A stretch of DNA of 64,000 bases from Nanobdellota archaeon (GTDB lineage: Archaea; Nanobdellota; Nanobdellia; Pacearchaeales; GW2011-AR1). The notes under the pieces are model-generated. The model was given only the letters and a program-made list of their open reading frames with translations. It ran no database searches and was not told the origin of the DNA. Position 1 is the stretch's first letter; each line of letters begins with the position of its first letter. Shown here one piece after another: positions 2,292-62,479 of the stretch. Where the stretch lies: contig JANLHN010000003.1 of assembly GCA_024654505.1 (NCBI GenBank), forward strand, positions 4,314-68,313. Reading direction: 5' to 3'. Both the position numbers and the translations under genes were made by a program.

Positions 2292-3152
2292 ATGAAAAGA
2301 GGATTGGCTTTTATAGGGCTATTTATAGTTGTCTTTTTATCATTGGTTGTTAGCGCAGAGAGCAGAGAAATATCTCAATTTTCTACTTATTATAATGATA
2401 ACATCGCGGGAACGTCTTCTGTTGATAGGATATTTGGAAATCAAAGAATAGATGTTTATCTTGATGAAGAATTGTCTTATCATTTGATTACTTCAGAAGG
2501 AAAGATTATTGAAGAGGGAAATGGTGGAGTCGAGAAGCCATCACTTAATATTTATGTTGGTAGCGGTGTTCTTAATGAGTTAATGGAAGGTACTTTAGAT
2601 TTTCAAGAGGCATTGGCCACTGGAGGGATTGAGTATAGGGGTGTTGGTTTCATTTCTAATATCAAGTTTAGAATTCTCCATTTTTTCCAAAACCTATTTG
2701 TTAAACCAAAGGCTCCTAAAAATGAGATTAATGATTTGGGTTCAGAGTGTGGGAATAATAAATGTGAGGCTGGAGAGAATCCAAAGAATTGTTATAATGA
2801 TTGTTGTGGAACTTGTGGAGATGGAAAATGTAAGGGATATAGTTGTGGTGAAGACAATCCTTTAAGTGAGAAGTATTGTCCCAAACAAACGGGTGGAGAT
2901 TGCGGGAACATTTGTGGCGATGGAACCTGTGATAAGGGAGAAAATCCCCAAGAATGTCCTGCAGACTGTGATTGGATAAAGTGTGGCGATGGAATATGCT
3001 CTCCTGGAGAAGATGATTCGTTAAGTGATAAGTATTGTCCTAAACAAACGGGTGGAGATTGTGGAAACATCTGTGGCGATGGAACCTGTGATAATGGAGA
3101 GAACTTTAGGGAATGTCCTGGAGATTGTAAGATTGTAATGGGGTTTGATTGA
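2292..3152 (+). CDS. secreted Cys-rich repeat protein; N-terminal signal/TM followed by tandem CGDGTCDxGEN..ECPxDC repeats
   Basis: Hydrophobic N-terminus. Three or more near-identical ~40-aa Cys-rich repeats (KYCPKQTGGDCGNICGDGTCD). Confidence 0.6.
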   Translation: MKRGLAFIGLFIVVFLSLVVSAESREISQFSTYYNDNIAGTSSVDRIFGNQRIDVYLDEELSYHLITSEGKIIEEGNGGVEKPSLNIYVGSGVLNELMEGTLDFQEALATGGIEYRGVGFISNIKFRILHFFQNLFVKPKAPKNEINDLGSECGNNKCEAGENPKNCYNDCCGTCGDGKCKGYSCGEDNPLSEKYCPKQTGGDCGNICGDGTCDKGENPQECPADCDWIKCGDGICSPGEDDSLSDKYCPKQTGGDCGNICGDGTCDNGENFRECPGDCKIVMGFD

Positions 3153-3302
3153 AAAAACAAGTTTTTATAATCATTTAATTATGTTTTATTATGGTGATTA
3201 AAACCATTGTATTCGACATCGAGGGAGTGATGTCTATGGAAAATATGTGATTGTGTTTTTAACCACAATAATTCTTTTAAACCTATAATTGGTTTGTTTT
3301 TC

Positions 3303-3758
3303 ATGGCAGGAGATAGAGAAGTTAGCGATATTGAGAAATTGATGGCTAGATCAACAATTAATTTTCCTAGATCAATTGATCATAAAGAAGTTGGTGGCCT
3401 TTTAACTCATGTGGCCAGAGGAATTGGACCTGCTACAACAATTAATTATCGAGTTTCAAGTAATGAGAATATTGTTCCTGAAAGAAATAATTTGGGGAGT
3501 CTTACTGGGAAACATATTTCTGACCCAGGATCTGCAACGACTAGTGGAAATATATCTACTTCCTATGGTGAAGGAAGTGGAGCTGAACTTGCTATAATAT
3601 CTTTTGATTTAAAGAGAGAACATAGAACAGATATTAGAGGATATGATTCAATGAAATTCTTTACAACACCTGGTTATTCTTTAGAAGAACTTAATCCTAC
3701 TGAGTTGAGGTTGATGGATAATGTCCGAGCCCAAGTTAGAGGGTGGTTTGGTGTTTAA
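3303..3758 (+). CDS. hypothetical protein (ATG start; leaderless behind a conserved promoter)
   Basis: The ORF has a conserved CACAATAATTCTTTTAAACC promoter 38 nt upstream of the ATG. The same module precedes the genes at 15293 and 62180. Confidence 0.5.
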   Translation: MAGDREVSDIEKLMARSTINFPRSIDHKEVGGLLTHVARGIGPATTINYRVSSNENIVPERNNLGSLTGKHISDPGSATTSGNISTSYGEGSGAELAIISFDLKREHRTDIRGYDSMKFFTTPGYSLEELNPTELRLMDNVRAQVRGWFGV

Positions 3759-4729: not shown

Positions 4730-5467
4730 TTATTTAGAACTTTGAATAATATCTAATAATCTACTTTTAATCCTCCTTTTTACTTCTGTTGGACCTTTTC
4801 TTTTACTAAGTATTAAATATAATTCTGCTGCTCTTGCTATTAGCCATGTATTTGTGTCTTCTCCAAGAAGAGAATAATCAAAATCAATATTTGTTCTATA
4901 AATTCTTTCTATCTCCTTCCTTCTATCTGGGTTAGAGATTATCATTGAGGCAACATCTCTCCCAGGATGTCCCAGTCCACTTAACTCAAAATCAAAATAA
5001 TAATTTTGCCCCTGAAATGTGACCATATTTTTGTCCTGTAAGTCTCCATGAAGAATTGTTGTTAATTCCATTTCTACTTTTAAGTCAGATAGTGCTTTTT
5101 CAACAAGAGCCCCAAGTTCACCGAAGGCATCCTTATTTTCAAGAATAAATGAGGCAACAGCCTGTATGTTATGGGGGAATAACAATCGATTATTAGGAAG
5201 GGGATTTTTTATAAAATATGAATGGACTCTTGCCCATTCTGCGGCTGTTTGAAGAATGTCTTTTTTTTCAGTTTCTATAAAATGTGTTTTGAGACAAAGC
5301 CCTTCAACCCCATAAACTTTTGGCGTTCTAACTAATCCTGTTTTTTGGAACAAATCATAAAAGAATAATTCTCTTCTTAGGAAAATTGGCTTTTGGTGTC
5401 TTTTAGATACAATTTTTTGTCCTTCAACTTCGTAAACCTCTGAAAAATTCCGATTAAAATCTTCCAT
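4730..5467 (-). CDS. aminoglycoside/choline-kinase-like phosphotransferase (APH family)
   Basis: Catalytic HGDLQDKN motif (the APH HGD..N motif) and a downstream D-[FY] region. There is a 2-nt gap to the upstream methyltransferase. Confidence 0.6.
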   Translation of the reverse strand: MEDFNRNFSEVYEVEGQKIVSKRHQKPIFLRRELFFYDLFQKTGLVRTPKVYGVEGLCLKTHFIETEKKDILQTAAEWARVHSYFIKNPLPNNRLLFPHNIQAVASFILENKDAFGELGALVEKALSDLKVEMELTTILHGDLQDKNMVTFQGQNYYFDFELSGLGHPGRDVASMIISNPDRRKEIERIYRTNIDFDYSLLGEDTNTWLIARAAELYLILSKRKGPTEVKRRIKSRLLDIIQSSK

Positions 5468-7285: not shown

Positions 7286-7344
7286 ATTTTTAATTAGCGA
7301 TTGAGATATTTAAATGTTGCTAAATATAGGATATCTGAGACAAT

Positions 7345-15253: not shown

Positions 15254-15273
15254 CACAATAATTCTTAAAAACC
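15254..15273 (+). promoter_or_regulatory. conserved leaderless promoter module CACAATAATTCTTAAAAACC (BRE/TATA)
   Basis: Near-identical 20-mers occur at 3265-3283 and 62141-62160. Each sits 38-39 nt upstream of an ATG. Confidence 0.5.
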
Positions 15274-15292
15274 TTGGATTGGTTTGTTTTTT

Positions 15293-15715
15293 ATGGCAGA
15301 AGATTTTGAAAGATTTAAATTGAAAACATATGATTTATGGGATTTATTTCTTCATGAGAGACAGTCTCCATACATCGGGAGGGCTTATGCCTGGGCAAGG
15401 AGACCTGAAGCAGATTTAGTTTCTGATGCTTCTAGAGGAGAGATATTGGAATTATTTGAAGTGGTTATTCCTGATTGGGAAAGAGCAACAAGGGAATTAT
15501 TTAGGCATGACAGATCTAATGTGGCGATACTCGGGAATGAAGCACCCCATCTTCATGCACATTTAATACCTCGATATCAAACATCTAGAACTTTCGCAGG
15601 GATAGATTTTGTTGACCCAAATCCTAGGGGAAATTATGCTCCCTACCCAAAAGTAGGTTTGGATGAAGCTGTTGTTTTTCAGATTAGAGATTTGATGAAG
15701 GGAAAACTTTCTTAA
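15293..15715 (+). CDS. HIT family protein (histidine triad hydrolase)
   Basis: HLHAHLIPR histidine-triad motif. Confidence 0.7.
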   Translation: MAEDFERFKLKTYDLWDLFLHERQSPYIGRAYAWARRPEADLVSDASRGEILELFEVVIPDWERATRELFRHDRSNVAILGNEAPHLHAHLIPRYQTSRTFAGIDFVDPNPRGNYAPYPKVGLDEAVVFQIRDLMKGKLS

Positions 15716-17589: not shown

Positions 17590-19158
17590 AGTATTTAGGT
17601 TTTGTGGAAACGGCCTTTACGGCCGTTTTTAACCCGGGGCTCCCGGGTTTGGTTCCAAGAGGGTTGTTGTGTTCTTTGTGTGCTGTATAGTGTACTATAA
17701 GATAAATAAAAAAATTCATCCAACATCAGCCCGCCCCCTCCTGGTAAAGAAACCCAGGGTAGGAGAGGGGGGGCGGGCTACGACGGACGAGGAGGGGTGA
17801 GCAGGGAACTTTCTCCTACTCCTCAGGACAACGAGACCCTCTAGGAGAGGGGGACCGACCTACCGTGCCATTCCATCCCGAGGGAGGGAAGGGAGGCGCC
17901 GTGGGAAGCGCAGGGCAGGGATGAAACGACCTTGGGGTTTGCCAAACCACCAAGACAGGAGGGTAGTCGGTCGTCGTGCTATTCTCACGACTTTTCCTGG
18001 TTTGAGCAGGGAGAGAGACCCACCAAGGGAGGAGAGGGCCTTGGCAAGTCAAGATGGGTTAGTCGCCCCCAGCAGCTTAGTCGCGCTGGATGCACGAAAT
18101 TGACGGGATGCTTCACCCGACAGGTGCTGGGGGCGACTGGGTACTGTCTCGATGAAACGGAACTTCCGCTCCACCGCACTTTCCCAAGATTTCTGGTGTC
18201 CCGCCGGTGTCACTTCCTTCCGTTTGGAGGGCCCTTTTGTCCCTTTGGATATCCTTCATCCTGAGTTTTTTTTACCCTTCCTTTCACAGTATGGGTTTTT
18301 TCTCAGAAGTAGGTTTTCCTCGGGGAGATTCTACGGATTTGTCCGCTTCCTCCCTCGCATCCGTGAGCAACACCGACGGGACTAGCCCTATCAAAGGGGG
18401 GAACCCACTACATGGCAAGGGTGTACCTCTAACCAGTTTGGAGAACCCCATTTAGCCACTTATCCCTTGCAGGGTGGTTAGGGTTCGCCTTACTAGCACG
18501 TGAGGCCAGTGCCTAGTTTTCCGGGATCGCCGCCAGTGTGATAGGACCATGGGTTTCAAGAAGGAACTACCGCCCCCTCAGTTCCCTTTTGGGCAACTTA
18601 CCCTTGGGGTACTGGGGCTTTTAGGGGGCGGTTTTGATGCCGAGTAGATAGGGTTCTCCGCCGCCAATACTTTCGTGTTAGACGGCGGACCCATCAGGTA
18701 AAGGAAAAGGTCTCGGTGTGCCGGCCCGCTTACCTACAACATCTAGGGGAGGAGACCTCTTGCTACGCGCGGTCGCTCAGAGTGCCGACCTGGGCGGAGG
18801 GTATGCCCACAAACACTACCTTCCAGACTCTCGTGGTGACCGAGGGGCGGAAGTGTGATTCTCATTGCGGGCTTCATTCGCTCCACAGGACAGAAGACAG
18901 GGGCGGACCGGCACGATTTTCAGGCCAGGTGGGTGAAGCTAAGACATTGCCGAAGACCTTGACAGGAAATGCACAAGACGACCCCACCTGGCCCTAGATT
19001 TCAGTGAGAAATACCTGAAACACCTCTCAGCGACGGACACAGCAACAACTAGAAATAGAATTCTTATTCGATTGCTCGAATCTTCTTCCTGGTTTCTGGT
19101 GTTGCTAGGAATCGTCGTTGGTGGTTCTAAGATGACGGGGTCATCGAAGGAAGGTGTG
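17590..19158. other. GC-rich non-coding block (about 1.5 kb) with no long ORF on either strand; structured RNA or decayed foreign DNA
   Basis: Only 60-110-codon ORFs on both strands. The 16S/23S universal motifs searched for were not found. A GC hairpin, CCCGCCCCCTCCT..AGGAGAGGGGGGGCGGG, lies at the left edge. The edge motifs match those of the 27-34 kb island. Confidence 0.4.
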
Positions 19159-19232
19159 TTTTTTGGTATTTGTGAATATGATTGTAATGAAAATTGTTGT
19201 GATTATCCATTTAAATAGATTACTATACTGGG

Positions 19233-29052: not shown

Positions 29053-30333
29053 CTAGGTGAGGGGGAACTCGAGCAGGTCCTTGGTCCAGTCGCCGTTCTC
29101 CATGATGACGACCTCGCGGCCGTCCTGGAGCGTGGCGGTGATGATGGTGTCCATGTCCGAGACCATGACGTCGTGGTGGGTGTTGGACATGTTGCAGCCG
29201 ACTTCCTTCTTCTCCTTGTTGCCCATCTTGTCACCACCCCGGAGAGCGGTGGCGTAGGCCATGCCGGTGGCGACGTGGCACGACGCGTTCTCGTCGTAGA
29301 GCGTGTGCTGGTAGACGCGACCGGTCTGGAAGATGGGGGAGCGCTTGACGGCCACGAGAGCCACCTCGCCGAGGAAGCGAGCTCCCTCGTCGGTGTCCAC
29401 CATCTTCTCGTACGAGTCGAGGTTGTTGCCCTCGATCTTGACGAGCTTGCCCTCCTTGAAGTACAGGACGAGGTTCTCGACCTTGTTGCCGTGGACGATG
29501 CTGGGGCGCGTGCAGCGCAGGACGCCGTTCGCGGTCCGCAGGTCAGGGGTGGTGAAGGTCTCGAACGTGGGGATGTTCAGGGTGACCATCTTGCCCTTGG
29601 CCGTGTCCTTCTTCGCCGAGATCCACTCGTGCTTGGGATGGAAGCCGACGGTGAAGTCGGTTCCCTCGCCGGCGTAGTGGAGGTTCGTGATCCGCATCGC
29701 GTTGAGGCGGGCCGTGACATCCATGAGGGTGTCGACATGTGCGTCCCAGAGCTTGAGGCAGTTGGGCGAGTCGGCGAATGTGAATGAGAAGACGTCGTCC
29801 CAGAGGGCGGCGACAGCCTCGTCCGTCGGGAGGTCCGGGAAGACCTTGGCGGCCCATCCCGGAGAGGGCGGGCCGGCGAGACACCATGCCACCATGCGGC
29901 GGTTGATGCCTTCTTCGCGCCAGCGGTTCAGGAGCGTCATCGTCGTCGTCGTGTAGGCCTGCATCTCCTCTTCGAGGCCCTTGAAGACGTCGGGGTGGTT
30001 CTGGCTTCGGAAGCCCAGGAAGCACCCTTGGGTCTCGATGACGCGTTCCATCTGGATCCGCCGCCACGTGTGTACGAGGTTGCGGTCCTGCTCGGGGGCG
30101 TGGCGCAGCTGGATTGCGGTCAGCATCTCGGAGCCGAACCGGTGGTCCACGTTGCGTGCCCCCAACTTGTAGGCCACCTCGGAGGCCATCTCGGCGAGTC
30201 TGACGTCGGACTCTTCGAAGGCCACGACGACGAACTCTCCTTCTTGGACGTTGAGGCCACGCCTCACGATCAGCTCCACGTAGTTGCGGAGTTTCTCATC
30301 GAAGCTCAGGACCTGGGTCTCTTGGACACTCAT
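29053..30333 (-). CDS. M29 family aminopeptidase (AmpS/aminopeptidase T-like)
   Basis: MSVQETQVLSFDEKLRNYVELIVRRGLNVQEGEFV is a typical M29 N-terminus. The internal ATG with a GGAGGAAGG RBS is chosen over the 24-codon upstream extension. Confidence 0.7.
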   Translation of the reverse strand: MSVQETQVLSFDEKLRNYVELIVRRGLNVQEGEFVVVAFEESDVRLAEMASEVAYKLGARNVDHRFGSEMLTAIQLRHAPEQDRNLVHTWRRIQMERVIETQGCFLGFRSQNHPDVFKGLEEEMQAYTTTTMTLLNRWREEGINRRMVAWCLAGPPSPGWAAKVFPDLPTDEAVAALWDDVFSFTFADSPNCLKLWDAHVDTLMDVTARLNAMRITNLHYAGEGTDFTVGFHPKHEWISAKKDTAKGKMVTLNIPTFETFTTPDLRTANGVLRCTRPSIVHGNKVENLVLYFKEGKLVKIEGNNLDSYEKMVDTDEGARFLGEVALVAVKRSPIFQTGRVYQHTLYDENASCHVATGMAYATALRGGDKMGNKEKKEVGCNMSNTHHDVMVSDMDTIITATLQDGREVVIMENGDWTKDLLEFPLT

Positions 30334-30430
30334 GTGTCTAATTTCCTTCCTCCGTCTGCATACCTCACGCGAGGTTCCGGGCTGCGGACCGGCTATCCTA
30401 AACACCTGTTCAAGATAGGTTGCATTAAGG

Positions 30431-30502
30431 GCTCTTCGTCCCTCCGGCCGAAGAGCTTGTTGTAGAATTGTGGCTGAGCCCTATTTGTATAGCACCGGGC
30501 CC
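30431..30502. repeat. 72-nt intergenic module (hairpin GCTCTTCG..CGAAGAGC plus TATACAAATAGGG), copy A
   Basis: Copy B at 33617-33686 is about 90% identical. Confidence 0.6.
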
Positions 30503-30530
30503 GGGGGTGCTTGTCGGCGTTCGGTTCCGG

Positions 30531-33470
30531 CTAGTCGCGCCGGCCGGTGTTGGGACGCGCGGCCATGATGGCCTCCACGAGTCCTTCCCAGCCCGGCACG
30601 TTGCCGAACACCTTCTGGATGGTCTGGGCCGTCTGGTCCTTGCCGAACATGGCGATCGGCGCACACATCTGTGCGATTTCGGCGAGGACCTTCTTGTCGC
30701 CCAGGTCCTTGAGGGCCGGAGCGATCTTCTCGGACATGACGGAGACGAGAGCGTTGGTGATGTCGCCGTCGTTCTTGGCCTCCTGGAGACGGCGCTCGAG
30801 CTCGATGCCACCCACGCGGAGGTTCTCCTCCGTCTGGGCCTTCTTGCGCTCGAGTTCCGCTGCCGCGATCTTGCTGTGGCTCTCCTGCTCGGCCAGCTTG
30901 GCTTCCAGGCGCTCCTTCTCGTGAAGGATCTCCGCCTGGAGCTGCTTCTCCTTGAGAGCCACGTCGGCCTGGAGCTGCTTCTCCTTGAGAGCCACGTCGG
31001 CTTCCGCCATCGCAGCCTTGAGAGCCACGTCGGCTTCCAGCTTCGTGGTGGCCAGCTTGGCCTCCCTCTCCGCCGCCACCTTCTTCATCGCGAAGTTGGC
31101 GTCGTCTTCGAAGGTCCTCTGGTCCAACTTGTCTTCCTGGTCCTTCTTCGCCATCGCGGTCTTGGCACCGATCTCGGCGAGTGCGAGCGACGTCCTGCGC
31201 TCGATCTCCTCCTCCTTCAGTTCCGCGATCGCCCTTGCGGTCTTGGCCCTTTCGTCTTCCTTGCTGCGCTCGATCTCCTCCAGCTTCGTGGTGAGCTCGA
31301 GTTCTCTGCGAGCGGCCTTCAGCTTGAGAGTGCCGGTGACGGCCTCCAGCTCCGCCGCACGCAGTTCTTCTCCTACCGTTCCGTCGACGATGCGGATCGC
31401 TTCGATCTGCACCTCCTTGATGTGCATCCCGTTCTCCGGGAAGGTGCGGCCGGGACGCTTGCCGTCTGCGCCCTGCTTCCCGATGATGGCGTCCCTGACG
31501 ATGTTGATGCCCACATCGTGCATCTCCTCGACCGAGTGGGTCGAAGCGATGTTCCGAAGGAGGCTCCGCATCGTGGCGACGAGCAGCTGGATGTAGTTCT
31601 CGACTGAGAACCAGAGATCCTTGTGCTCCTTCAGGAAGTCCACCGTGTAGGCGATGCGGACCTTGAACTGGACGAAGTCCCTCGTCTCGACCGTGACCTC
31701 GTCTGAGACGGGGTTGTTGGCGATGCGGAGGTACACGTCCTCCTTGACCTTGTCGTCGGTCTTGGGGGTTCCGGTGAGCAGCTTGAAGATGGTGACGCCT
31801 TCGTCGTACTCAAGGAGTACGGTTTCCGGACCCACCACGACCTTCTGCTCGCCCGTCTTGGAGGTCACCTGGACAGCGTATCCCTCGTAGACCGAGACGC
31901 CCACGGCGCCCTGGAACCTCGTGTCGAGCTTGAGACTCCGGGGAGGAGTGAATGCACCGCGACGGCTGATCTCATCACCGGCGAACTTCTCCTCGGCGTG
32001 GCTGCCGATGGGGGCAGCGTAGGCCTCTTCGCAGAACTCCTCCGAGCCCCTCCGACGACCAGCGGTGAACGAGGCCGCCCGCAGCATCGCGGACTGGCTG
32101 CCCATTGCCTTGGAGATCTCCCGGAGTTGCCGGTTGTGCACCTGCGCTTCCATGTTGCCGGGGAAGAGCAGGTTGACGAGGCGGTCGGTCAGACCCCTCA
32201 CGATGTGGACCTGCCTGCGGGGGTCCGCCAGGAAGAGCTTCGGACCGCGGATGAGAGTTATGGTCCCCTCAACCTTGTCCAGGACGTATCGACCCTCACC
32301 CTTCGGGATGATGACGGCGAAGTGCTTCTCCTGCTTCTCGCCGCTCTCGTTCTCGTAGGTGATGACCGCGTGCTCGGGTCGGGGGAAGTAGATCTTCGTG
32401 TCCCTCCCCGTGATGAAGAGCTCTTCACCCTTCGTGTATGTCCTTCCGTTCTCCGTGTACTCCTCGATGACCTTGACGTGGATGCCCATGTCATCGTTGA
32501 GCTCGATCGCGCGGAAGACGCGGCTGCCCTCGTCGCTGGTGACGAAGGTCTCGGTGCTCTTGGGGAACACCACCCTGGGACCGCGGAGGAAGCGCTTCTC
32601 GCCGTTCTCGCCGAGGAGCACGCAGAACTCCATGGTTTCCAGAGTCACGGCCGAACGGACGTACTTCTCCTTCCCGTCCTCGGGGATGACGCGACCGCCG
32701 GTCGGCGGGATGAAATAGGAGTACACTGTGCCCTTGATGACGACCCGCTGGCCGCGTGTGTAGGCGGCCTGCTCGAGTTCGTCTTCGGGTTCTCCGGCGG
32801 AAGGCTCTTCCGAAGAGGTGTTACCACCTTCGTCGTCGCCATCGTCGCCATCGAGCGTGGGCTCGGTGTCTTTGATGCTCTGCTCGCCGCCGCCGGTCTG
32901 CCCTCCACTTCCGGTCTGCTCGCCGCCGCCGGTCTGCCCGTGCCTGGTGCTGCTCTGCTCGGATGTGGGGACGACCCGGTCGATGACCGCGGTCTTCATG
33001 CCCTCCTCGAACTGCTCCGGGTTCGTGATCTCGAGAACCAGGAACTCGTTCGTCTTGAGGACGTGTCCCGGGACGACCTGGACCTTCTGGCCAGGCCACA
33101 GCGGGATGGAGATGGGGCCGGGGATGTTGACGGTCTTGCCCACCTCCAGTCGTTCCCCCGAGTTCTTCGTACCGGTCTCCGGGAGCTTCCGGTTGCTGAT
33201 AGGGGTAGGGTTTGCCAGCACCAGGTAGGACTTCTCGTCAGCCGTGGCGAATCGCTGCTTCGCCTTGTCCGCCGGCGCCTCCACGAACCTGTCGTCTCCG
33301 TCCAGGACGACGACCTTGTCGTCGCTGGTGAGGTTGACCAGGCAGGGACCGACCCAGACCCGGACATCTCCCTTTTTGGTGTCCTGCACCCAGATGAACT
33401 CGTTGGGTGCCAGGGGAATCTCCAACTCTCTTGGAGTTGTTCCCCTCCTCAGGTCCTGCTCTCCGTTCAT
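30531..33470 (-). CDS. Major Vault Protein homologue (MVP repeats, shoulder domain and a coiled-coil cap helix)
   Basis: Shoulder-domain matches to metazoan MVP: [24 protein letters not shown] against [45 protein letters not shown] against [22 protein letters not shown], and WFSVENY..RNIAS..EEMHD..IVRDAI. A long E/K/A-rich helix sits at the C-terminus. Confidence 0.8.
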   Translation of the reverse strand: [979 protein letters not shown]

Positions 33471-33475
33471 GTCTA

Positions 33476-33615
33476 ACTTCTTTCCGCTCTTGCGAGCATG
33501 AGCCTACTCTCTTCCCACGAGATTACACAATGAGTGTTTTCTCGCTTGACTTCTTGCACCATGCAAGTTCCTGGGCTTAGAACCAGGCGCACCTTGGAAG
33601 GTGTGGTGGGTTAGA
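33476..33615. repeat. 140-nt 5' leader/promoter module, copy 1 (upstream of the MVP gene)
   Basis: Near-identical (2-3 mismatches) to 34343-34483. It contains the inverted repeat TTGCA-CCA-TGCAA. Confidence 0.7.
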
Positions 33616-33616
33616 G

Positions 33617-33686
33617 CGCTCTTCGTCCCTCCGGCCGAAGAGCTTGGTTGTAGAAATGATGGGCCCTATTTGTATAGCACCGGGCC
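33617..33686. repeat. 72-nt intergenic module, copy B
   Basis: See 30431-30502. Confidence 0.6.
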
Positions 33687-33710
33687 CATTGGTGCACGCC
33701 GTCGCCGAAG

Positions 33711-34337
33711 CTACGGGTTCTTGACTGGGGCGGCGATACCTGCGGGTGTCTTCCCGGGAGGGGTGGCCGCGGGTGCCTGACCGACTCCGGCAGGGGTCCG
33801 CTGGATGGGCTGGGCTCCCTTTGGGTCCTCTCCGCGGGGGTCCACCTTCTCCATCTTGGCGAACTCGAAGTCCGTCGTCCAGATGGTCATGTTGTCGTCT
33901 CCTCGCCGGAGGAACTTGGCGTCCTTCGTCGTGAACTCCAGCCACAGCGGACAGCCGTTCCGGAACAGGTTGCACAGGTTCTCTGCGGTGGCCTTGTCGA
34001 CTTGCTGTTCGCAGCGGATTCGCTGCTCGCTCGCGTCGTAGGCCTCGAACCAGATGTTGACTGGGAGTTCCTTGCCCTTGATGATCCGGATGGCTCCCAC
34101 GTTCCATCCGTCGAGGGTCCACTCTCCCGAGGTGGGGAGGGAGGAAGTGTAGACGACCGGGGCCGGCCTGGGGGCGGGCACCGGAGCCGGAACAACAGGG
34201 GTCGGGGCCGGAACGACTGTCAGGGTCGTGGTCGGCCGGTCGAGAGCGTGGCGGTCGCAGTTCTGGTGGCGATCGGTCATGCACCCGGTGAGGGTCAGGC
34301 TGGCGATGAGGGCCAGTGCGAACAGGATGCGCTTCAC
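33711..34337 (-). CDS. lipoprotein (signal peptide with lipobox LTLTGC)
   Basis: MKRILFALALIASLTLTGC, a Pro/Ala-rich linker and a GTG start. Confidence 0.55.
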   Translation of the reverse strand: MKRILFALALIASLTLTGCMTDRHQNCDRHALDRPTTTLTVVPAPTPVVPAPVPAPRPAPVVYTSSLPTSGEWTLDGWNVGAIRIIKGKELPVNIWFEAYDASEQRIRCEQQVDKATAENLCNLFRNGCPLWLEFTTKDAKFLRRGDDNMTIWTTDFEFAKMEKVDPRGEDPKGAQPIQRTPAGVGQAPAATPPGKTPAGIAAPVKNP

Positions 34338-34342
34338 GGGAT

Positions 34343-34483
34343 TCTTCCTTCCGCTCTTGCGAGCATGAGCTTACTCTCTTCCCACGAGATTACACAACGA
34401 GTGTTTTCTCGCTTGACTTCTTGCACCATGCAAGTTCCTGGGCTTAGAACCAGGCGCACCTTGGAAGGTGTGGTGGGTTAGAG
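34343..34483. repeat. 140-nt 5' leader/promoter module, copy 2 (upstream of the lipoprotein gene); ends exactly at the island/host boundary
   Basis: See 33476-33615. Confidence 0.7.
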
Positions 34484-35595: not shown

Positions 35596-35677
35596 AAAAA
35601 TCATAGGTCTCTTTTACTTTTAAACTTTGTTAGAAAGAGTTTTAAATATGTATTAACTAAATAAATCATGAAATTAT

Positions 35678-35730
35678 GACTTCATTGAAGTTTCATGTTT
35701 CAATTTATTAAAGGAGAAGACAAAAATATG
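35678..35730 (+). promoter_or_regulatory. conserved leader module GACTTCATTGAAGTTTCATGTTTCAATTTATTAAAGGAGAAGA..ATG (palindrome ACTTCA/TGAAGT plus SD)
   Basis: The same module lies upstream of the genes at 39655 (minus strand) and 47557. Confidence 0.55.
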
Positions 35731-36405
35731 AAAAAGAAGTTAATATTGTTGGTATTTGTTTTTTTATTAATTCTCCCCATTATTTTTGCTCAAGAGAGTG
35801 ATCCTCCCGTGGCTGGTTCGGGTGACTCAGGTGAAAGTGTTGTGACTGATGGAGAAGGAGTTAATTTAGTTGATAAATCAAAAGAACTTGGGAGTAATTT
35901 ATTTGATAAATCAAAAGTATCATTTCCTATAGAAATCTCTGTTCCTAAATGGATGCAGTCTGGTTCTGAAATTATATTTAAAGTGACCTCAGGGGATAAC
36001 TTAAGTATCTTTTTATTTATTGTTTTAATAGGCATATTTATTATTGTTTTTTCAATTCTTCAGAATGTTATTCACTTATTTACTCCATCTTCTGGAACCA
36101 TTTCAAGTGTAGTTTCCTTGGTGTTTACTCTTGTCCTTTCTTTCTTTGGAATTATAAAATCCTTGGCTCTTTCATTGTTTAGCTTTAAAAGTGAAAGTCT
36201 TGGTACCTTTCCTTCAATCTTAGTGATTCTAGGAGCTATAGGGCTTTGTTTTCTCCTCCATATTGTTGTAAATAAGGTTGTGAGAAAGAAAAAGATAGGA
36301 GATGCCATAGATGAAGGAACTGCTGCCGGAACTCAGATGTCTAAGTTAAAGGCCATGGCAGAAGTACAAGAGGTAGTAAATGATGGTACAATGGGTCCTC
36401 CATAG
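35728..36405 (+). CDS. secreted/membrane protein (signal peptide, acidic Gly/Ser region, four TM)
   Basis: ATG MKKKLIL behind AAAGGAGAAG. The upstream MFQFIKGED extension is a conserved leader, not protein. Confidence 0.5.
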   Translation: MKKKLILLVFVFLLILPIIFAQESDPPVAGSGDSGESVVTDGEGVNLVDKSKELGSNLFDKSKVSFPIEISVPKWMQSGSEIIFKVTSGDNLSIFLFIVLIGIFIIVFSILQNVIHLFTPSSGTISSVVSLVFTLVLSFFGIIKSLALSLFSFKSESLGTFPSILVILGAIGLCFLLHIVVNKVVRKKKIGDAIDEGTAAGTQMSKLKAMAEVQEVVNDGTMGPP

Positions 36406-36627: not shown

Positions 36628-37479
36628 CTAGTTCTTCAATCCAGATAGCTCTCTTATTGTCTTTTCAATCTCTTTTATATGCTTTCTAGCTGCCACTTTG
36701 TCTGCAGGTAATGCCATTGGATTTGCAATAATATTCTGATAGGCTTCTATACTTGTTGTTAGAGTATTTATTTGCGCCAAGGCTCGAGAGCCCTTGGCTT
36801 TAGAGATGCCTAGGTCTGCTCTTTCTTTGTAGATTAATCTTCTGAAGGTTGCATCAAACCAGAACATTAATAGGGAAAGTACAGCAAATATAATATATAC
36901 CCAAAGTGTAGCTTTAGCCCCTTCCACACCAAAGGTTCCTGTGGCGATAAGGTAACTTAAGAATGCAAAATAAACTAACCAAATTACTTTATTTGCTAAA
37001 CGAGACCGAATCTTCATAGTTATAAAGAACATAGCTAAGAAAGGTAATCCTATAAGTAATGTTGCAATGAATGCACTTGCCGGAGATGTTAAAGACATCC
37101 AAAGATCTTTAGGCATAAATCTAACACCTATGATTGCGACGATTATTCCGACAAAGAAGTTTGCAAGGTGTCCTGCTTTTGATTCACCAAAGATATTTAC
37201 AGAATCAAGAGTTGATACAATAACTATAGATGCTAAGAGAAACGTTAAAACCATTAAGAAGGCATTATTCTGTCCTGTTTGGTCTAATCCTAAAACTGCT
37301 TTGAATATCGGACCTAAAATTGTCATAAATAACTCACTTACCAAATTCATACCTTTCTCTGCGGTACCTCCCTCTAGAGCAAACCAACCGATAAGAAAAA
37401 TCCCTGCAAAAATAATAAGAATACCAACGACAACTCCTGCAAATATGTTTTGTCCTCTTTTGTTGAAGCCCGTTTTCAT
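36628..37479 (-). CDS. multi-pass membrane protein, paralogue family member 1
   Basis: About 60% identical to the 37642-38478 product. Shared C-terminal motif EKTIRELSGL. Confidence 0.55.
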   Translation of the reverse strand: MKTGFNKRGQNIFAGVVVGILIIFAGIFLIGWFALEGGTAEKGMNLVSELFMTILGPIFKAVLGLDQTGQNNAFLMVLTFLLASIVIVSTLDSVNIFGESKAGHLANFFVGIIVAIIGVRFMPKDLWMSLTSPASAFIATLLIGLPFLAMFFITMKIRSRLANKVIWLVYFAFLSYLIATGTFGVEGAKATLWVYIIFAVLSLLMFWFDATFRRLIYKERADLGISKAKGSRALAQINTLTTSIEAYQNIIANPMALPADKVAARKHIKEIEKTIRELSGLKN

Positions 37480-37641: not shown

Positions 37642-38478
37642 TTATTTTCCTAGTCCGGATAACTCTCTTATTGTCTTTTCAGTGTTCATCATTGCTTTCC
37701 TAGCGTCTGCTTTTGTTTTTGGATCAGAATTAGGGTCTGCAATAACAGTTTGATATTCTTGTATTAAGGCTTTTAGCTTCTGTATTTGGATTAGGGCTTG
37801 GGTTCCTTTTGCTTGAGCTATTCCTGTTTCAACTCTTTCTTTGTAAAATATTCTTCTTATACTTGCGTCAAAGATTAACATTACCAGGGAAAGAAATGCG
37901 AAGATGATATATATCCACATTGTAGCCTTAGCTCCATCTACATCGAATGTCCCTGTAGCTATAAGGTAACTTAAGAATGCAAAATAAACTAACCAGATTA
38001 CCTTATTTGCTAAACGAGACTTAATCTTCATAGTTATGAAGAACATTACTAAGAAGGGTAATCCTACGAGTATTGTTGCAATAAATGCGCTTGCAGGAGA
38101 TGATAATCCATTCCAAAGGGTTGAAGGCATAAATCTAACACCTATGACTGCGACAATCATTCCAACGAAGAAGTTTACAAGGTGTCCAGATTTGGACTCA
38201 CCAAAAATATTTATAGAATCTAAAGTTGATACTACTACTATTGCAGCCATTAGGAAGGCTAAGACCATCATAAAATCATTTGTTCCATCAAAACCTAGCA
38301 AGCCCTTAAATAATGGCCCAAGAATATCTACAAATATACTACTTACTAGATTCATGCCCCCTTCTGCAGAGCCCTTGTCAATCCAACCAAAGATAAGAAT
38401 CCCGAAAAAAATAACAAGAAGAACGACGACAACTCCTGCAAATATATTCTGTCCTCTTTTGTTGAAGCCCTTTTTCAT
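37642..38478 (-). CDS. multi-pass membrane protein, paralogue family member 2
   Basis: Tandem paralogue. Confidence 0.55.
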   Translation of the reverse strand: MKKGFNKRGQNIFAGVVVVLLVIFFGILIFGWIDKGSAEGGMNLVSSIFVDILGPLFKGLLGFDGTNDFMMVLAFLMAAIVVVSTLDSINIFGESKSGHLVNFFVGMIVAVIGVRFMPSTLWNGLSSPASAFIATILVGLPFLVMFFITMKIKSRLANKVIWLVYFAFLSYLIATGTFDVDGAKATMWIYIIFAFLSLVMLIFDASIRRIFYKERVETGIAQAKGTQALIQIQKLKALIQEYQTVIADPNSDPKTKADARKAMMNTEKTIRELSGLGK

Positions 38479-39385: not shown

Positions 39386-39655
39386 TTAATCATCACTGCT
39401 TCTTTGGTAGGCTACAATTTTTCTATTTTTTCCTTCTCCTTCATAAATAGGAACTTCTCTTGCGGCCTGGTTTCCTCCAGACCCTCCCATTAGAGAGAAT
39501 AAAACTCCAACGACGATTAGGATAACTCCAGCTATTGTTATTATCATAGGACTTATGGTGTTCAGGATTGCCCATTCAAGTTTGAATGTTCCAAAACCTA
39601 TAGCCATTATCACTAAGCCAGATATTGCGATTGTATAGCTCACCCACTTTTTCAT
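39386..39655 (-). CDS. small membrane protein (three TM)
   Basis: ATG MKKWVSY behind the conserved leader module. Confidence 0.45.
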   Translation of the reverse strand: MKKWVSYTIAISGLVIMAIGFGTFKLEWAILNTISPMIITIAGVILIVVGVLFSLMGGSGGNQAAREVPIYEGEGKNRKIVAYQRSSDD

Positions 39656-39802
39656 ATTTTCATCTTCTCCTTTGATAAATTGAAACATGAGACTTCAATG
39701 AAGTCACTTTTCATATTTTATACTAGTCTAAGTTATTTATAAAACTTTGTTTAAGTCATCCTAAAGTATATTTTCTAGACTAAAAATATATATAAAGCAC
39801 TT

Positions 39803-40014: not shown

Positions 40015-43000
40015 CTAAAGCACAACTATCAAGATAATTATAACTATAAGAATTATGATTCCAATTATTAGGAATTTAAGGATTATTGGTAAGATCCCTT
40101 CGTTTGCTGTTGATGCTGTGGATGCTGTAGGGCTTTCACTATTGTCTTTATCAAGGGCAATTGAGTTTCCAGTTATTAATCTGGTTGTTGTTTCTCCACT
40201 ACCTAATATAATTGAATCCCCTGCGTTCAATACAATTGGTTCAATAGTTTTAACCTGGAGTTGTGGGATTATTTGATCATTAAAGTCTCCACAATTTCCC
40301 TCAATACATTGGCCGCTGTTTCCACCACTTGATGTGCTTCTGCTGTTTGAAGAACTTTTATATTCTCGATTGTCCTGACTATTAATACATCCAGAATCTA
40401 CCATGTCGATATCTCCATCTCCGTCGTTGTCGATTCCATCTTGACATTGTGCCATAGGATTTGTTTCATCATTGTCTGTAGCACTTGAGCATCCAAAGTC
40501 TGCTAAGTCTATGTAACCATCTCCGTCATTGTCAATTCCATCAGAACATTGTGGGGTTGTTGGAGGAATGGTATTTGTTTCATTATCATCATCCCAAGCA
40601 GAACATCCCATGTCTAATTGGTCTATGAATGAATCTCCGTCATCATCTAGACCATTAGAACATTGGTATGTTAAGTTGTTATTCACTTCATCATCGTCCA
40701 TTGAAGATGAACATCCAAAGTCTGCAGGGAAGTCTATTGAACCATCCCCGTCGTTGTCAATTCCATCTGAACATTGGTGAATATGAGAGTGATCCATTTC
40801 GTCATTATCCGAAGCATTCATACAGCCTGGGTCCGCGGGGAAATCAATTAATCCATTCCCGTCGTTGTCAGTTCCATCTGAACATTGAGGGGTTGTTGGA
40901 GGAATGGTATTTGTTTCATTATCATCATCCCAAGCAGAACATCCAGCATCAAGTTGGTCTATGAACGAATCTCCGTCATTGTCAGTTCCATCATTACATT
41001 GGAATGTTCCATTGTTTGTTTCATCATCGTCTGTAGCACTTGAGCATCCAAAGTCTGCTAGGTCTATGTAACCATCTCCGTCATTGTCAGTTCCATCAGA
41101 GCATTGATAATTTCTTACTAATATTGTTCCAACATTCACAGTTGCTGAATTATTACTTGGGTCAGTTGCAGTCATGTTTAGAGTGTAGTCTCCTACAGAC
41201 AATCCAGCAGGTATAATATATAGGACAGGCAAACTAGAGTTATTTGGAATGCTTGTTGGTCCTTGGGTGTTCACGAGGGTGCCGTTGCTATCATAAAGGT
41301 TAAATGTGATGTCTATAAGGTATTCTGAGCTATCAAAATCTACTGAAAGGTTTTGACTTTGTCCAAAGTTTGTTAGGGGTAATGAGGGAATTGTAAGAAT
41401 ATTAGATATTACAGGAGCTGTTACATCCTTAGATTCGTCATCATCTGTTGCGATAGAACAACTAGGGTCTGCTAAATCAGTTACACCATCTCCATCATTA
41501 TCAACACTATCTTGACATTGCGTTGTTGCTGAACTTTCGTTGTTTCCTTGATTTGTTGAACATCCAGGGTCTGCTAAATCAGTTACACCATCTCCATCAT
41601 TATCAACACCATCTTGACATTGGGCAAGAGGATTTGTTTCGTTGTTATCTGTTAGTGCCGAACATGAGAAATCATTTGGATAATCTGTTGCATTGTCTCC
41701 ATCATTATCAATTCCGTCTTGACATTGGGAGGTTGCTGTTGATTCGTTGTTTCTTGTCTTATTATAAGTACTTGGGTTTGTAACATCTGTCCAACATCCA
41801 GGGTCTGCTGTATCTGTTAAGGAATCCCCATCATTATCAACACTATCTTGACATTGTGTTGTTGCAGAGCCTTCGTTATTCCCTTGGTTTGTTAGGCAAC
41901 CAGGGTCAGCTAAATCAGTTACACCATCTCCATCATTGTCAATACCATCTTGACATTGTGTAAGGGGTGTGCCTTCTGTTGCGTCGTTTGCGCTTGAACA
42001 TGAAAAGTCATTTGGATAATCAGTTACACCATCTCCATCATTATCAATTCCATCCCTACATTGTGGAATTAAACTACATTGCCAAACCTTTACAATAACC
42101 TTCCCTTCTCCATTCCTGTTGTCAGTTATTGGTGTGTCTTTTATCCATACCCAAACATTGTTAGATAGCCAGCTACTATATGTTATGTTTGCGAATTGTA
42201 GGGCTCCTGCGTTTGCAGATTGTGCGGCTGATGCGTTTTTGTAATAGGCATCTTCTCCGAGGAAAAATCCGTTATAGTTGTTTGAACTAGTTTTGTATCT
42301 TACTTTTGCATCTGATAACCAAGTGTATCCATTTTTCCCACCAACATTTGTTGAGTCCTTATTATCAGAATTCCATCTACTCCATGCTCCAGAATATAAT
42401 TCAAATACATATTCTCCTACTGGAAGTTTGAATCCATTTCTTTGTGTGTCCCCTGCTGTGGCGGATTTTGTTGCATCTAGAGTTTTTGTTGTTTTAAGAA
42501 CCGCTTCGTATCCCGCGTCACAAATGTTTGTTTGGACACACTTTTGTATTCCTTCTCCGGGAATTCCCATATTTATCCTAGAAGCATACATTCCCCTTAG
42601 ATTCTTTTGGGGGTCTCTATTCTGGTTTACTGCAGTGATTCCCCAAGCAACTTGGCCATTTCCTTCGTCAGAATATACTGTGAAAGAATTTCCGCTTTTT
42701 CCTGCCAAAACAATTAGTCTACTATTAGAACTTATATTGTTTGCTGCTTTACAGATTATATGGCTTATGTGGTCGTCTCCAGAATCAACATAAATTACAC
42801 CAGTCATAATCTTCCCAGAACCACAAGAATTTTTTCCATCTACAGTAAGTTTTACTTTTGTTTCTGTATGGCTTACCAGAACTCCAGAGGTGTTCATACA
42901 TTTTAAGGCAGTTGCATGTCGGTCATCTTTATCATCCATTGCAAAACCACTAACAATCATGTTTCCAGGACACTTATATGTTCCAGAACCTTTTCCTTCC

Positions 43001-43146
43001 ATTTGAATAGTTTTTGTATCTGCTTGGTCAATTCCATTATCATAGCAAGTTTGGCTTGCGGCTGCAGTTACTATTGCTGAAAGTCCAATTAATAAGACTA
43101 ATGTTAAAAGAAAGACTATTTTGTTTGTGAAAGTAATCTTAGACAT
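40015..43146 (-). CDS. giant surface protein: signal peptide, 20+ CxDGxDNDGDGxxD Ca-binding-type repeats, C-terminal TM anchor
   Basis: Repeated QCQDGIDNDGDGVTDLADPGC units, the C-terminal hydrophobic tail ILPIILKFLIIGIIILIVIIILIVVL and an N-terminal TM. Confidence 0.65.
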   Translation of the reverse strand: MSKITFTNKIVFLLTLVLLIGLSAIVTAAASQTCYDNGIDQADTKTIQMEGKGSGTYKCPGNMIVSGFAMDDKDDRHATALKCMNTSGVLVSHTETKVKLTVDGKNSCGSGKIMTGVIYVDSGDDHISHIICKAANNISSNSRLIVLAGKSGNSFTVYSDEGNGQVAWGITAVNQNRDPQKNLRGMYASRINMGIPGEGIQKCVQTNICDAGYEAVLKTTKTLDATKSATAGDTQRNGFKLPVGEYVFELYSGAWSRWNSDNKDSTNVGGKNGYTWLSDAKVRYKTSSNNYNGFFLGEDAYYKNASAAQSANAGALQFANITYSSWLSNNVWVWIKDTPITDNRNGEGKVIVKVWQCSLIPQCRDGIDNDGDGVTDYPNDFSCSSANDATEGTPLTQCQDGIDNDGDGVTDLADPGCLTNQGNNEGSATTQCQDSVDNDGDSLTDTADPGCWTDVTNPSTYNKTRNNESTATSQCQDGIDNDGDNATDYPNDFSCSALTDNNETNPLAQCQDGVDNDGDGVTDLADPGCSTNQGNNESSATTQCQDSVDNDGDGVTDLADPSCSIATDDDESKDVTAPVISNILTIPSLPLTNFGQSQNLSVDFDSSEYLIDITFNLYDSNGTLVNTQGPTSIPNNSSLPVLYIIPAGLSVGDYTLNMTATDPSNNSATVNVGTILVRNYQCSDGTDNDGDGYIDLADFGCSSATDDDETNNGTFQCNDGTDNDGDSFIDQLDAGCSAWDDDNETNTIPPTTPQCSDGTDNDGNGLIDFPADPGCMNASDNDEMDHSHIHQCSDGIDNDGDGSIDFPADFGCSSSMDDDEVNNNLTYQCSNGLDDDGDSFIDQLDMGCSAWDDDNETNTIPPTTPQCSDGIDNDGDGYIDLADFGCSSATDNDETNPMAQCQDGIDNDGDGDIDMVDSGCINSQDNREYKSSSNSRSTSSGGNSGQCIEGNCGDFNDQIIPQLQVKTIEPIVLNAGDSIILGSGETTTRLITGNSIALDKDNSESPTASTASTANEGILPIILKFLIIGIIILIVIIILIVVL

Positions 43147-61455: not shown

Positions 61456-61528
<73 letters not shown>

Positions 61529-62127: not shown

Positions 62128-62179
62128 TTTATTATATTATCACAATAATTCTTAAATACCTTCACTACTCTTTGTTATT

Positions 62180-62479
62180 ATGTTAAATTATCTTGAAAGA
62201 TTCAGAGAAAAACTTGGGGATGATTGTTACTCTGAGGCATATAGAATCTTAAGAGATCACCCTGAAGTTATTCCTCGCCTCTCTGTTCCAGAAATTACTG
62301 GGATTCTTGTCACTTTTGATAAGGGGTTTATGAGAGGGGCATCCGCATATTTAGTTGAAAGGGCAAGAGAATCTAAAACTCCTAGGGAAATGGAAGAGAT
62401 TAGGAAAAACCGCTCGATTGCTCGTCTTTTAATGGAGATTGTAGGAGAATCTGGAGGGGATTTTTGTGATAGCACTTAA
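62180..62479 (+). CDS. hypothetical protein (leaderless, conserved promoter 62141-62160)
   Basis: ORF plus promoter module. Confidence 0.45.
   Translation: MLNYLERFREKLGDDCYSEAYRILRDHPEVIPRLSVPEITGILVTFDKGFMRGASAYLVERARESKTPREMEEIRKNRSIARLLMEIVGESGGDFCDST

Follow-up and report, generated by a model that had tools for sequence, protein, structure and literature searches.

Apart from rRNA, bacteria and archaea very rarely have RNAs of more than 1 kb, and no DPANN example is known to have been described. The closest described systems, GOLLD, ROOL, OLE, and HEARO, are long, intergenic, non-coding, hairpin-dense, GC-rich relative to an AT-rich genome, and narrowly distributed. The same traits were found in a GC-rich block between the genes for a PUA-domain protein and a methionine aminopeptidase (MetAP) in a 64,000-nt stretch of Nanobdellota contig JANLHN010000003.1 (the window). 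This block is read here as a candidate gene for a ~1.5 kb, highly structured, lineage-restricted non-coding RNA on the minus strand of the window, a reading drawn from sequence comparison and predicted folding and given a probability of about one half. The candidate RNA appears to be restricted to a small Pacearchaeota-like (DPANN) lineage and would run in the same direction as the PUA and MetAP genes. It differs from the four described RNAs in that it matches none of their covariance models, belongs to a DPANN archaeon, exceeds any of them in length (1.5–2.1 kb), and is conserved in sequence at its two ends only, whereas GOLLD, ROOL, OLE, and HEARO have conserved multi-helix cores throughout.

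Two other systems bear comparison. A tRNA-like GC content in an AT-rich genome is a classic signature of structural RNA, and a GC-content screen for structural RNA genes in AT-rich archaeal genomes was reportedly carried out by Klein, Misulovin and Eddy in 2002; the RNAs found by that screen were mostly <400 nt and of known classes. The core of the block has the GC content of the host tRNA-Thr (0.57 in the window and 0.59 in the nearest relative, vs. 0.59 for the tRNA), as such genes do, but it is 1.5 kb long and an orphan. Yeast telomerase RNA, which Zappulla and Cech are said to have described in 2004 as a flexible scaffold, likewise consists of short conserved modules joined by fast-evolving structured arms and shifts in length by hundreds of nucleotides between fairly close relatives; however, the block has no telomerase, template region, or shared sequence, and the likeness is one of analogy, not membership. 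Conserved ends combined with a centre that seemingly keeps only pairing and composition would be unusual for a prokaryotic RNA and closer to eukaryotic scaffold RNAs. Additionally, the small genomes of DPANN archaea leave little room for non-functional DNA, and the upkeep of 1.5–2.1 kb with as much GC as a tRNA, where the genome has 35%, suggests a function for which the cell pays a price.

A GC-rich non-coding block shared with the nearest relative

The window has two GC-rich segments, the block and an island at 27400–34483, outside of which its GC content is 35.5%. GC in the block is at least 50% across 17691–19050 and reaches 57.1% in the core (17720–19007). The spacer that holds the block is 1,662 nt long and lies between the PUA stop codon (19233) and the MetAP start codon (17570), both on the minus strand. 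Its neighbours are archaeal housekeeping genes, specifically those for PolB, FEN1, TFE-alpha, AlaRS, an Hjc-like resolvase, RsmB, the PUA-domain protein, and MetAP. The MetAP is a type II enzyme (Pfam Peptidase_M24) whose nearest named relatives are from Pacearchaeota and Nanoarchaeota, and the host is thus taken to be a DPANN archaeon. NCBI entries identical to two of the window's proteins come from the metagenome-assembled genome of an uncultured archaeon.

The longest open reading frame (ORF) in the block is 110 amino acids on either strand, as the first-pass annotation of this DNA had stated in calling the block GC-rich and free of longer ORFs. The GC periodicity score of the block was 0.02, whereas three of the large island genes scored 54–230, the remaining one 14, and host MetAP 8.5, and phase bias did not exceed noise in any 150-nt window of the block. 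Reassigning one or two stop codons opened no believable frame in the block, a six-frame pseudo-protein query (1,634 amino acids) had no match at E ≤ 0.01 among 5.8 billion proteins, and Pfam found nothing at E ≤ 1 in the stop-free stretches of this block or of its counterpart in the relative L016, described below. A coding gene, a pseudogene, and a recoded gene were rejected on these results. Known RNA families fared no better. In an Rfam 15 scan of the whole window at the gathering threshold, the sole match was a tRNA-Thr at 61456–61528, outside the block, and at E ≤ 10 the block gave only sub-threshold chance matches to eukaryotic lncRNA and miRNA models; ARAGORN found nothing in the block, and Rfam found nothing relevant in the L016 block. 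The known families considered (rRNA, RNase P, SRP, tmRNA, group I/II introns, GOLLD, ROOL, and OLE) were set aside, no Rfam model having matched. An earlier by-eye conclusion that the block holds no 16S or 23S motif was thus borne out, and the Rfam/Infernal scan that had been proposed alongside it, as a way to expose a known RNA, produced no such identity at either threshold. The proposed viral and plasmid homology search was equally empty: distant blastn found no similar sequence in phage and plasmid collections, k-mers and end motifs searched against IMG/VR gave nothing beyond one chance-level palindrome match, an exact 24-mer from the block had zero matches in a metagenome search, and no described family of such RNA was found in the literature searched.

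Gene order in relatives was traced by tblastn and gene tables. The relatives keep the order PolB-ZIP-RsmB-x-PUA-[slot]-MetAP, in which the slot corresponds to the position of the block. In the nearest relative, represented by the metagenome contigs L016 (from JGI 3300009506) and L017 (from SRR14699975), which are 99.96% identical to each other in DNA at this region, the PUA–MetAP slot is filled by a 2.1 kb non-coding block with 59% GC and a periodicity score of 0.39. Their proteins are 71% (MetAP), 77% (PUA), and 76% (RsmB) identical to those of the window, and the window and L016 MetAPs are each other’s nearest among the 40 homologs compared. It is this GC-rich, non-coding block at the same position in the closest relative that leads to the structured-RNA reading, with synteny and non-coding character retained together in two lineages only. 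In eight slots from more distant relatives (seven distinct contexts), the intervening DNA is 166–805 nt long with 29–37% GC. At least eight relatives with MetAPs 50–66% identical lack the GC-rich block, the slot being either empty (166 nt, 29% GC) or occupied by unrelated AT-rich ORFs, and two more, L025 and the P0126 contig, have a called protein gene there. A GC-rich block was thus found in the slot of the nearest relative and in none of the other relatives sampled, and among these it is a shared character of a two-member clade. An extra 124-amino-acid ORF precedes the GC block in L016. Across Pacearchaeota-like genomes the slot is hypervariable (L001, L004, L018, L019/L020, L022, L023/L024, and L025), and L025 carries a phage-integrase-family gene four genes upstream of it, immediately before RsmB.

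A variable slot of this kind invites another explanation, in which the block would be a mobile or integrative element without coding content, or else a hot spot of cassette exchange, its ends being element ends or att sites, its centre exchangeable cargo, and the island a gene-carrying relative. The sibling proposal of the first-pass annotation, discussed below, takes its strongest form here. The integrase gene upstream of the slot in one relative would suit such an origin, as would the combination of conserved ends with unrelated centres in the two genomes. However, the block ends are ~62–85% identical between the window and L016, a divergence comparable to that of the host genes that flank them, as vertical descent would give and separate recent insertions would not; since the closest relative has a block in the same slot with ends diverged about as far as the flanking genes, and the block is missing only from more distant relatives, a recent insertion is not indicated. 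Moreover, both centres are non-coding, an improbable outcome had prokaryotic DNA, ~90% of it coding, been captured at random twice. A mobile origin is considered unlikely on balance, including the evidence from the island given below.

Conserved ends, variable core, and proposed direction of transcription

On the minus strand, the PUA stop codon is followed after 16 nt by a TATA-like box (TATTTAAAT, 19209–19217), which precedes the 5′ motif by ~50 nt, and an equivalent (TTTATTTAAAC, 5161–5171) occupies the matching place in L016. The box directly follows the upstream gene in both genomes, with the motif CACCTTCC-TCGATG ~45–50 nt further on, and is a putative promoter of the candidate RNA, from which transcription would start ~25 nt downstream. 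CACCTTCC, the complement of the GGAAGGTGTG given as the right-edge motif in the first-pass annotation (19149–19158, a position that was exact), opens a conserved 5′ module of 167 nt and 44% GC (19000–19166, minus strand). The module aligned with L016 5128–5359 by blastn (E = 4e-11; 62–73% identical), and both sequences fold into the same closed domain, in which a closing helix formed by the CACACCUU motif is predicted around one hairpin and a long branched stem. The 5′ strand of that helix, CACACCTTCC (19149–19158, minus strand; the reverse complement of GGAAGGTGTG), is kept as GCACCTTCC in L016 and is also found in both island leaders; its partner in the minimum-energy fold is GAGGUGU (~19030–19024), a purine stretch ~130 nt downstream. 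The fold z-score of the module was -3.8 in the window and -2.3 in L016, and several helices are kept while their sequence has changed (GAUGAC-CCC-GUCAUC vs. GAUGGCC-CAU-GGCCAUC; AGCAACA/UGUUGCU vs. AG(A)CCAC/GUGGCU; and, in the terminal hairpin, AUUCGA-GCAA-UCGAAU vs. ACC-UACG-GGU, with loops GCAA vs. UACG). A covariance model of the module, R1, matched only the window site and L016/L017 among the window and 16 related loci, and since it found only the two block loci, the 5′ module, the GC-rich core, and the palindrome at the other end are treated as one package. The first ~170 nt of the RNA would accordingly be a conserved closed domain whose predicted closing helix uses the CACCUUCC motif. 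A C/D-box reading of CGAUGA...CUGA in this module was dropped because CUGA is not kept in L016.

Downstream of the module lies the variable GC-rich core (17720–18999, minus strand; 57% GC), a chain of stem-closed hairpin domains. In both cores, which contain no tandem or unit repeats, the domains are closed by perfect GC-rich stems of 8–14 bp with interiors of 23–78 nt. Perfect stems of at least 10 bp number four in the window block against 0.15 expected, those of at least 9 bp number six in the L016 block against 0.97 expected, and GC-rich coding controls have no perfect stems of at least 10 bp. By this excess of long stems and by the z-score of the 5′ module, the block is more paired or more stable than its composition predicts, although z-scores of folding windows exceed those of coding controls only modestly. 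In order along the minus strand, the domains include GGCCAGGTGGG/CCCACCTGGCC (18923–18993; perfect 11-bp stem, 49-nt interior), Hb (18569–18632; perfect 10-bp stem), Hc (18061–18138; perfect 14-bp stem, 50-nt interior), and Ha (AGCCCGCCCCC/GGGGGCGGGCT, 17728–17779), the last before a T-run and the same hairpin as the CCCGCCCCC/GGGGGCGGG of the first-pass annotation, which does exist, with a perfect 11-bp stem. An integron attC site was considered for Ha by eye, GTTGGAT following the hairpin, and was rejected since no matching R″ core accompanies it. On the MetAP-sense strand, A > T and C ≥ G in both cores. Pyrimidine tracts (≥8 nt) are 2.2-fold enriched on this strand in both genomes (P ≤ 0.002), purine tracts are not, and CCUCC and CCCUCC are enriched in the L016 core. 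REP/BIME elements and yeast mitochondrial GC clusters are likewise GC-rich, perfect palindromic hairpins in the non-coding DNA of an AT-rich genome, and, as with REP/BIME, one hairpin type recurs in the intergenic spacers of the island; however, the block hairpins are not dispersed (in the 64 kb they occur in the block and the island only) and do not form tandem or repeated units.

The simplest reading of the core is that pairing and GC content were selected and sequence was not, because slot DNA is 29–37% GC in relatives and the proteins are 71–78% identical, a distance over which unconstrained DNA should have drifted to AT. The homology of the two block centres is suggested by their common position and style. 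The RNA would then continue from its 5′ domain into a fast-evolving chain of GC-clamped hairpin domains, the pattern seen in the two genomes, and could act as a scaffold or decoy by analogy with telomerase RNA; function or protein binding would fall to its conserved ends, and its hairpins would add stable bulk and display CU-rich single-stranded tracts. The same evidence bears on whether the block might be functionless GC-rich DNA, either the remnant of horizontally acquired genes or junk gained with the island. Such an origin would suit a base composition at odds with the rest of the genome, a distance of 8 kb to a clearly foreign island (GC at third codon positions, GC3, of 80–89%; nearest major-vault-protein (MVP) homologs bacterial, at 42% identity), and the lack of any detectable homolog outside one relative. 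Yet remnant genes should have left codon periodicity, local or global, protein remnants, or a usable recoding, none of which was seen in the block; a block of the same kind persists at 71–78% protein identity where neutral slot DNA is 29–37% GC; long perfect stems are strongly over-represented; and the end modules are conserved with compensatory changes. Functionless DNA is therefore regarded as very improbable.

At the 3′ end, a T7 run (17708–17714) is the sole run of at least five T on the minus strand across the block and is proposed as a putative archaeal termination signal. The boundary itself is marked by a near-palindrome, TATAGTGTACTATA (17686–17699), with arms TATAGT/ACTATA around a GT centre. 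The first-pass annotation had correctly reported this motif with an A-run after it, although it placed it one position to the left (17685–17698) and called it a palindrome, which it is only imperfectly. The homologous place in L016 has GTATAGTGCACTATAC (7322–7337), which with its flanks forms a perfect 18-bp palindrome, AGTATAGTGCACTATACT. Together with two hairpins the palindrome makes up a 3′ module that aligns between the window and L016 (blastn of the 3′ end, E = 1e-11). Hairpin A (AACCCGGG-AGC-CCCGGGTT, 17631–17649, minus strand) is conserved, with one compensatory pair relative to L016, and hairpin B (AAACGGCC-GUAAA-GGCCGUUU, 17608–17628, minus strand) is conserved in position, with a stem that is fully different in L016 (GGCGACC-GAAA-GGUCGCC vs. 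GGCC-GUAAA-GGCC). The two hairpins (17608–17649; L016 7350–7400) are separated by a conserved A5–A6 run, and on the plus strand they have the look of a hairpin + T5–T6 terminator in both genomes, where no plus-strand gene ends. The MetAP promoter follows next and is strongly conserved (85% identity to L016 over 34 nt), its TATA box lying at leaderless distance from the MetAP start codon. The proposed transcription unit would thus end near the T-run, the conserved palindrome, and the two conserved hairpins, just ahead of this promoter.

The candidate RNA was assigned to the minus strand at odds of roughly three to one. L016 also has the TATA box ahead of the 5′ module but no plus-strand promoter next to the palindrome. 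Mean z-scores of folding windows were lower on the minus strand in both genomes (-2.3 vs. -1.4 for the window block, -2.0 vs. -1.1 for L016), stable tetraloops are swapped for one another in homologous hairpins (GCAA/UACG and GUAAA/GAAA), and the pyrimidine-tract excess is specific to the minus strand. The plus strand has mid-block T8 (18265–18272) and T6 (18295–18300) runs, and the minus strand has no run of at least five T before the T7 at the 3′ border, which by itself is not significant. Strand and position also matter for a further explanation, that the block is a cis-acting part of a neighbouring unit, either a giant 3′ untranslated region of the RsmB–PUA operon, a giant upstream leader or insulator of MetAP, or a plus-strand RNA. 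It does share its strand with both neighbours and takes up the space from the PUA stop codon to the MetAP promoter, and no T-run separates the L016 block from the MetAP gene; and for a plus-strand RNA in particular, the two 3′ hairpins resemble hairpin + T5/T6 terminators on that strand in both genomes, and G exceeds C there. On the other hand, a conserved TATA box of its own precedes MetAP at leaderless distance, the conserved TATA and the missing plus-strand promoter in L016 speak for an independent minus-strand unit, an archaeal RNA polymerase on the plus strand should halt at the mid-block T8 and T6 runs, and relatives manage with an empty 166-nt slot. A cis-acting part is considered quite unlikely.

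Several observations weigh against a structured RNA on the minus strand. The block is known from only two independent examples, and their cores (1.29 kb in the window, 1.96 kb in L016) have no collinear similarity at all. RNAalifold gave a consensus of 27 pairs for the 5′ module with none broken, three compensatory, and four G-U compatible, but with two sequences this covariation is not significant, 54 of 500 shuffles reaching the observed score, and the antisense of the module also yields a consensus fold (-18.0 vs. -22.1 kcal/mol). The z-scores of folding windows are only modestly beyond those of GC-rich coding controls (averages -1.4 to -1.6). Over the whole block, both strands have the same minimum free energy (-589 vs. 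-588 kcal/mol), which also suits the cis-acting explanation, and neither this energy nor unpaired-base composition carries a strand signal; GNRA and UNCG tetraloops, alone or combined, are not enriched on either strand; C exceeds G on the proposed RNA strand, which is atypical for structural RNA; and the T-run is absent from the equivalent place in L016, which leaves the 3′ end uncertain.

Relation to the 27–34 kb island

The island (27400–34483) carries four large genes, all on the minus strand (27690–28781, 29053–30405, 30531–33470, and 33577–34284). Its products are a 363-amino-acid Cys-rich zinc-ribbon-like protein, an M29 peptidase, a 979-amino-acid MVP homolog with Vault_3 and MVP_shoulder domains, a lipoprotein, and two tiny membrane ORFs. 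GC3 is 80–89% in three of the four large genes and 54% in the lipoprotein gene, and the closest MVP homologs are bacterial (~42% identity). No MVP homolog was known in archaea according to a 2019 preprint (10.1101/872010), and the database search gave none from an archaeal genome but that of the island; nor did a relative of MVP emerge among viruses.

The first-pass annotation had proposed that the block is a decayed or cargo-less sibling of the island, or else a large structured RNA belonging to it, and had suggested aligning the two. By blastn of the block against the whole window, only chance matches of at most 26 nt were found, none extended with the island, and MAFFT and Smith-Waterman alignment with shuffles recovered nothing beyond short motifs (a palindrome of 12 nt, one 10-mer, and a hairpin type); the end regions reached p = 0.05–0.09 in local alignment, 5–9% of shuffles being as good. 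Model R1 does not match the island leaders. With no alignable homology beyond these motifs, no coding trace, and a block of the same kind in the slot of the relative, the sibling proposal is not supported; a large structured RNA is the best-supported reading, and its belonging to the island was not shown.

The short motifs differ in their weight. The palindrome ATAGTRYACTAT has exactly two copies in the 64 kb against 0.01 expected, each with the left border of a GC-rich segment ~20–35 nt away, and the hairpin 13-mer CGCCCCCKCAGTT occurs twice against 0.01 expected, the palindrome, 10-mer, and 13-mer patterns all having been chosen after the data were viewed. The left-edge palindrome, which is also present at the homologous place in L016, is thus shared beyond chance, as had been claimed, and so is the hairpin style, given the four stems of at least 10 bp and the shared 13-mer. 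Hb and the island intergenic hairpin H1 (27636–27669, minus strand), which is of the same type and has a near-copy, H2, at 28994–29027, have in common CGCCCCCKCAGTT and AACTG.GGGGGCGG. The right-edge 10-mer GGAAGGTGTG is conserved within the block family; its link to the island is not clear, for although it has three copies against 0.1 expected, two of the three lie inside a 140-nt internal repeat of the island, and 5–9% of shuffles matched as well. The palindrome and hairpin links are therefore convincing and the 10-mer alone is not. The island edge motifs, ATAGTGCACTAT at 27378–27389 and GGAAGGTGTGGTGGGTTAGAG at 34463–34483, lie exactly where they had been reported.

The second exact palindrome (ATAGTGCACTAT, 27378–27389) sits between a TATA box (TTTAAATA, 27401–27394, minus strand) and the leaderless ATG (27370) of a gene beside the island for a 61-amino-acid protein (27185–27370, minus strand), for which weak Pfam winged-helix matches (TBPIP, E = 1e-3) and no PDB or PHROG match were found. 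A site between the TATA box and a leaderless ATG is the usual position of an archaeal auto-repressor. The left border of the block shows the same arrangement on the minus strand, a TATA-like run and then the palindrome, and L016 keeps the palindrome only. The palindrome is thus a putative protein-binding, operator-like DNA site, and the 61-amino-acid winged-helix protein, in whose own promoter the only other exact copy lies, is its likely binder. As an operator it would place the island and the block under one regulator and hints at common control of the RNA and the foreign island; this is the only arguable functional link between the two. Alternatively, the palindrome could be transcribed and form a hairpin or an RNA–RNA dimer. 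Outside the window, the exact 16-nt GTATAGTGCACTATAC occurs at 3111–3126 of viral contig L021 (IMGVR_UViG_2802428982_000005; 64% GC), upstream of a gene start, which as a single match in all of IMG/VR is chance-level.

The island also supplies further evidence on the mobile-element explanation. The arrangement is alike in all three GC-rich segments, the palindrome always on one side and a CACCTTCC motif always opposite, with neither order nor orientation changed; Hb and H1 share their 13-mer, and a degenerate palindrome (ATAGATTACTATAC, 19215–19228) lies at the right flank of the block, where it overlaps the TATA-like box and would form possible flanking repeats with the copy at 17686–17699 (11 of 14 positions match). 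The block resembles genomic islands and att-bearing integrative elements, the neighbouring island among them, in its compositional anomaly, a palindromic motif at one border, a 10-mer in common at the opposite border, and a hairpin type in common. However, the right copy is not in L016, the island right flank has no palindrome copy at two or fewer mismatches, and no convincing terminal repeats or target duplications were seen. Additionally, homology to the 5′ module is lacking in the island leaders, no recombinase, integrase, or transposase was found among the ORFs across 13–49 kb (Pfam, NCBIfam, and PHROGs), and searches of phage, plasmid, and IMG/VR collections gave no copy. The block thus differs from an integrative element in having no recombinase, coding cargo, or extended end homology and in being present with co-diverged ends in a relative.

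A bolder form of the structured-RNA reading would make the block the founding member of a new class of >1 kb DPANN RNA, with a conserved 5′ junction domain starting with the 16S 3′-end (anti-Shine-Dalgarno)-like CACCUUCC, fast-evolving GC-clamped hairpins showing CU-rich (CCUCC-like) single strands, and an operator shared with the horizontally acquired vault island; such an RNA might be a sponge for GGAAGG or the RNA partner or cargo of a vault-like particle. As a sponge, its 5′ CCUUCCUUC would pair with the GGAAGGAAG ribosome-binding sites of island genes. Shine-Dalgarno-like GGAAGG sequences do precede every large island gene; this idea is nonetheless a long shot. Separately, the GGAAGGAAG-like ribosome-binding sites ahead of the large island genes are complementary to CUUCCUUC at the block 5′ end. 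The vault connection has a partial parallel in vault RNA, in that the block is likewise a non-coding RNA candidate in a genome with an MVP homolog, 11 kb away. Vault RNAs are ~80–150 nt RNA polymerase III transcripts bound through TEP1, whereas the candidate is 1.5 kb and no TEP1/TROVE domain was present in the scanned ORFs; nothing ties the L016 block to MVP, and the database search gave no close MVP homolog beyond that of this metagenome-assembled genome. A vault link was rejected after six loci (two bacterial MVP genes) were found to have neither M29 or Cys-rich neighbours, nor a large non-coding neighbour, nor similarity to the block.

Several repeated features were observed within the island and elsewhere in the window. 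The island reuses regulatory modules in near-identical form: it has two 140-nt leaders that are 98% identical (33477–33616 and 34344–34483), upstream of the MVP and lipoprotein genes, and has two copies each of a terminator-like hairpin pair (30428–30459 and 33615–33646) and of the CCCCGCCCCC hairpin (27636–27669 and 28994–29027). Beyond it, a 60-nt inverted repeat, 93% complementary (35677–35736 and 39647–39706), brackets 3.9 kb that contain two paralogous ORFs with no Pfam match (36628–37479 and 37642–38478), a segment that could be invertible or duplicated. An ORF of 1,043 amino acids (40015–43146, minus strand), also with no Pfam match, contains at least nine repeats of ~100 nt. Finally, a 62-nt promoter-like family (CACAATAATTCTTAAAAACC...) occurs at 3264–3325, 15254–15315, and 62141–62202, upstream of three host genes.

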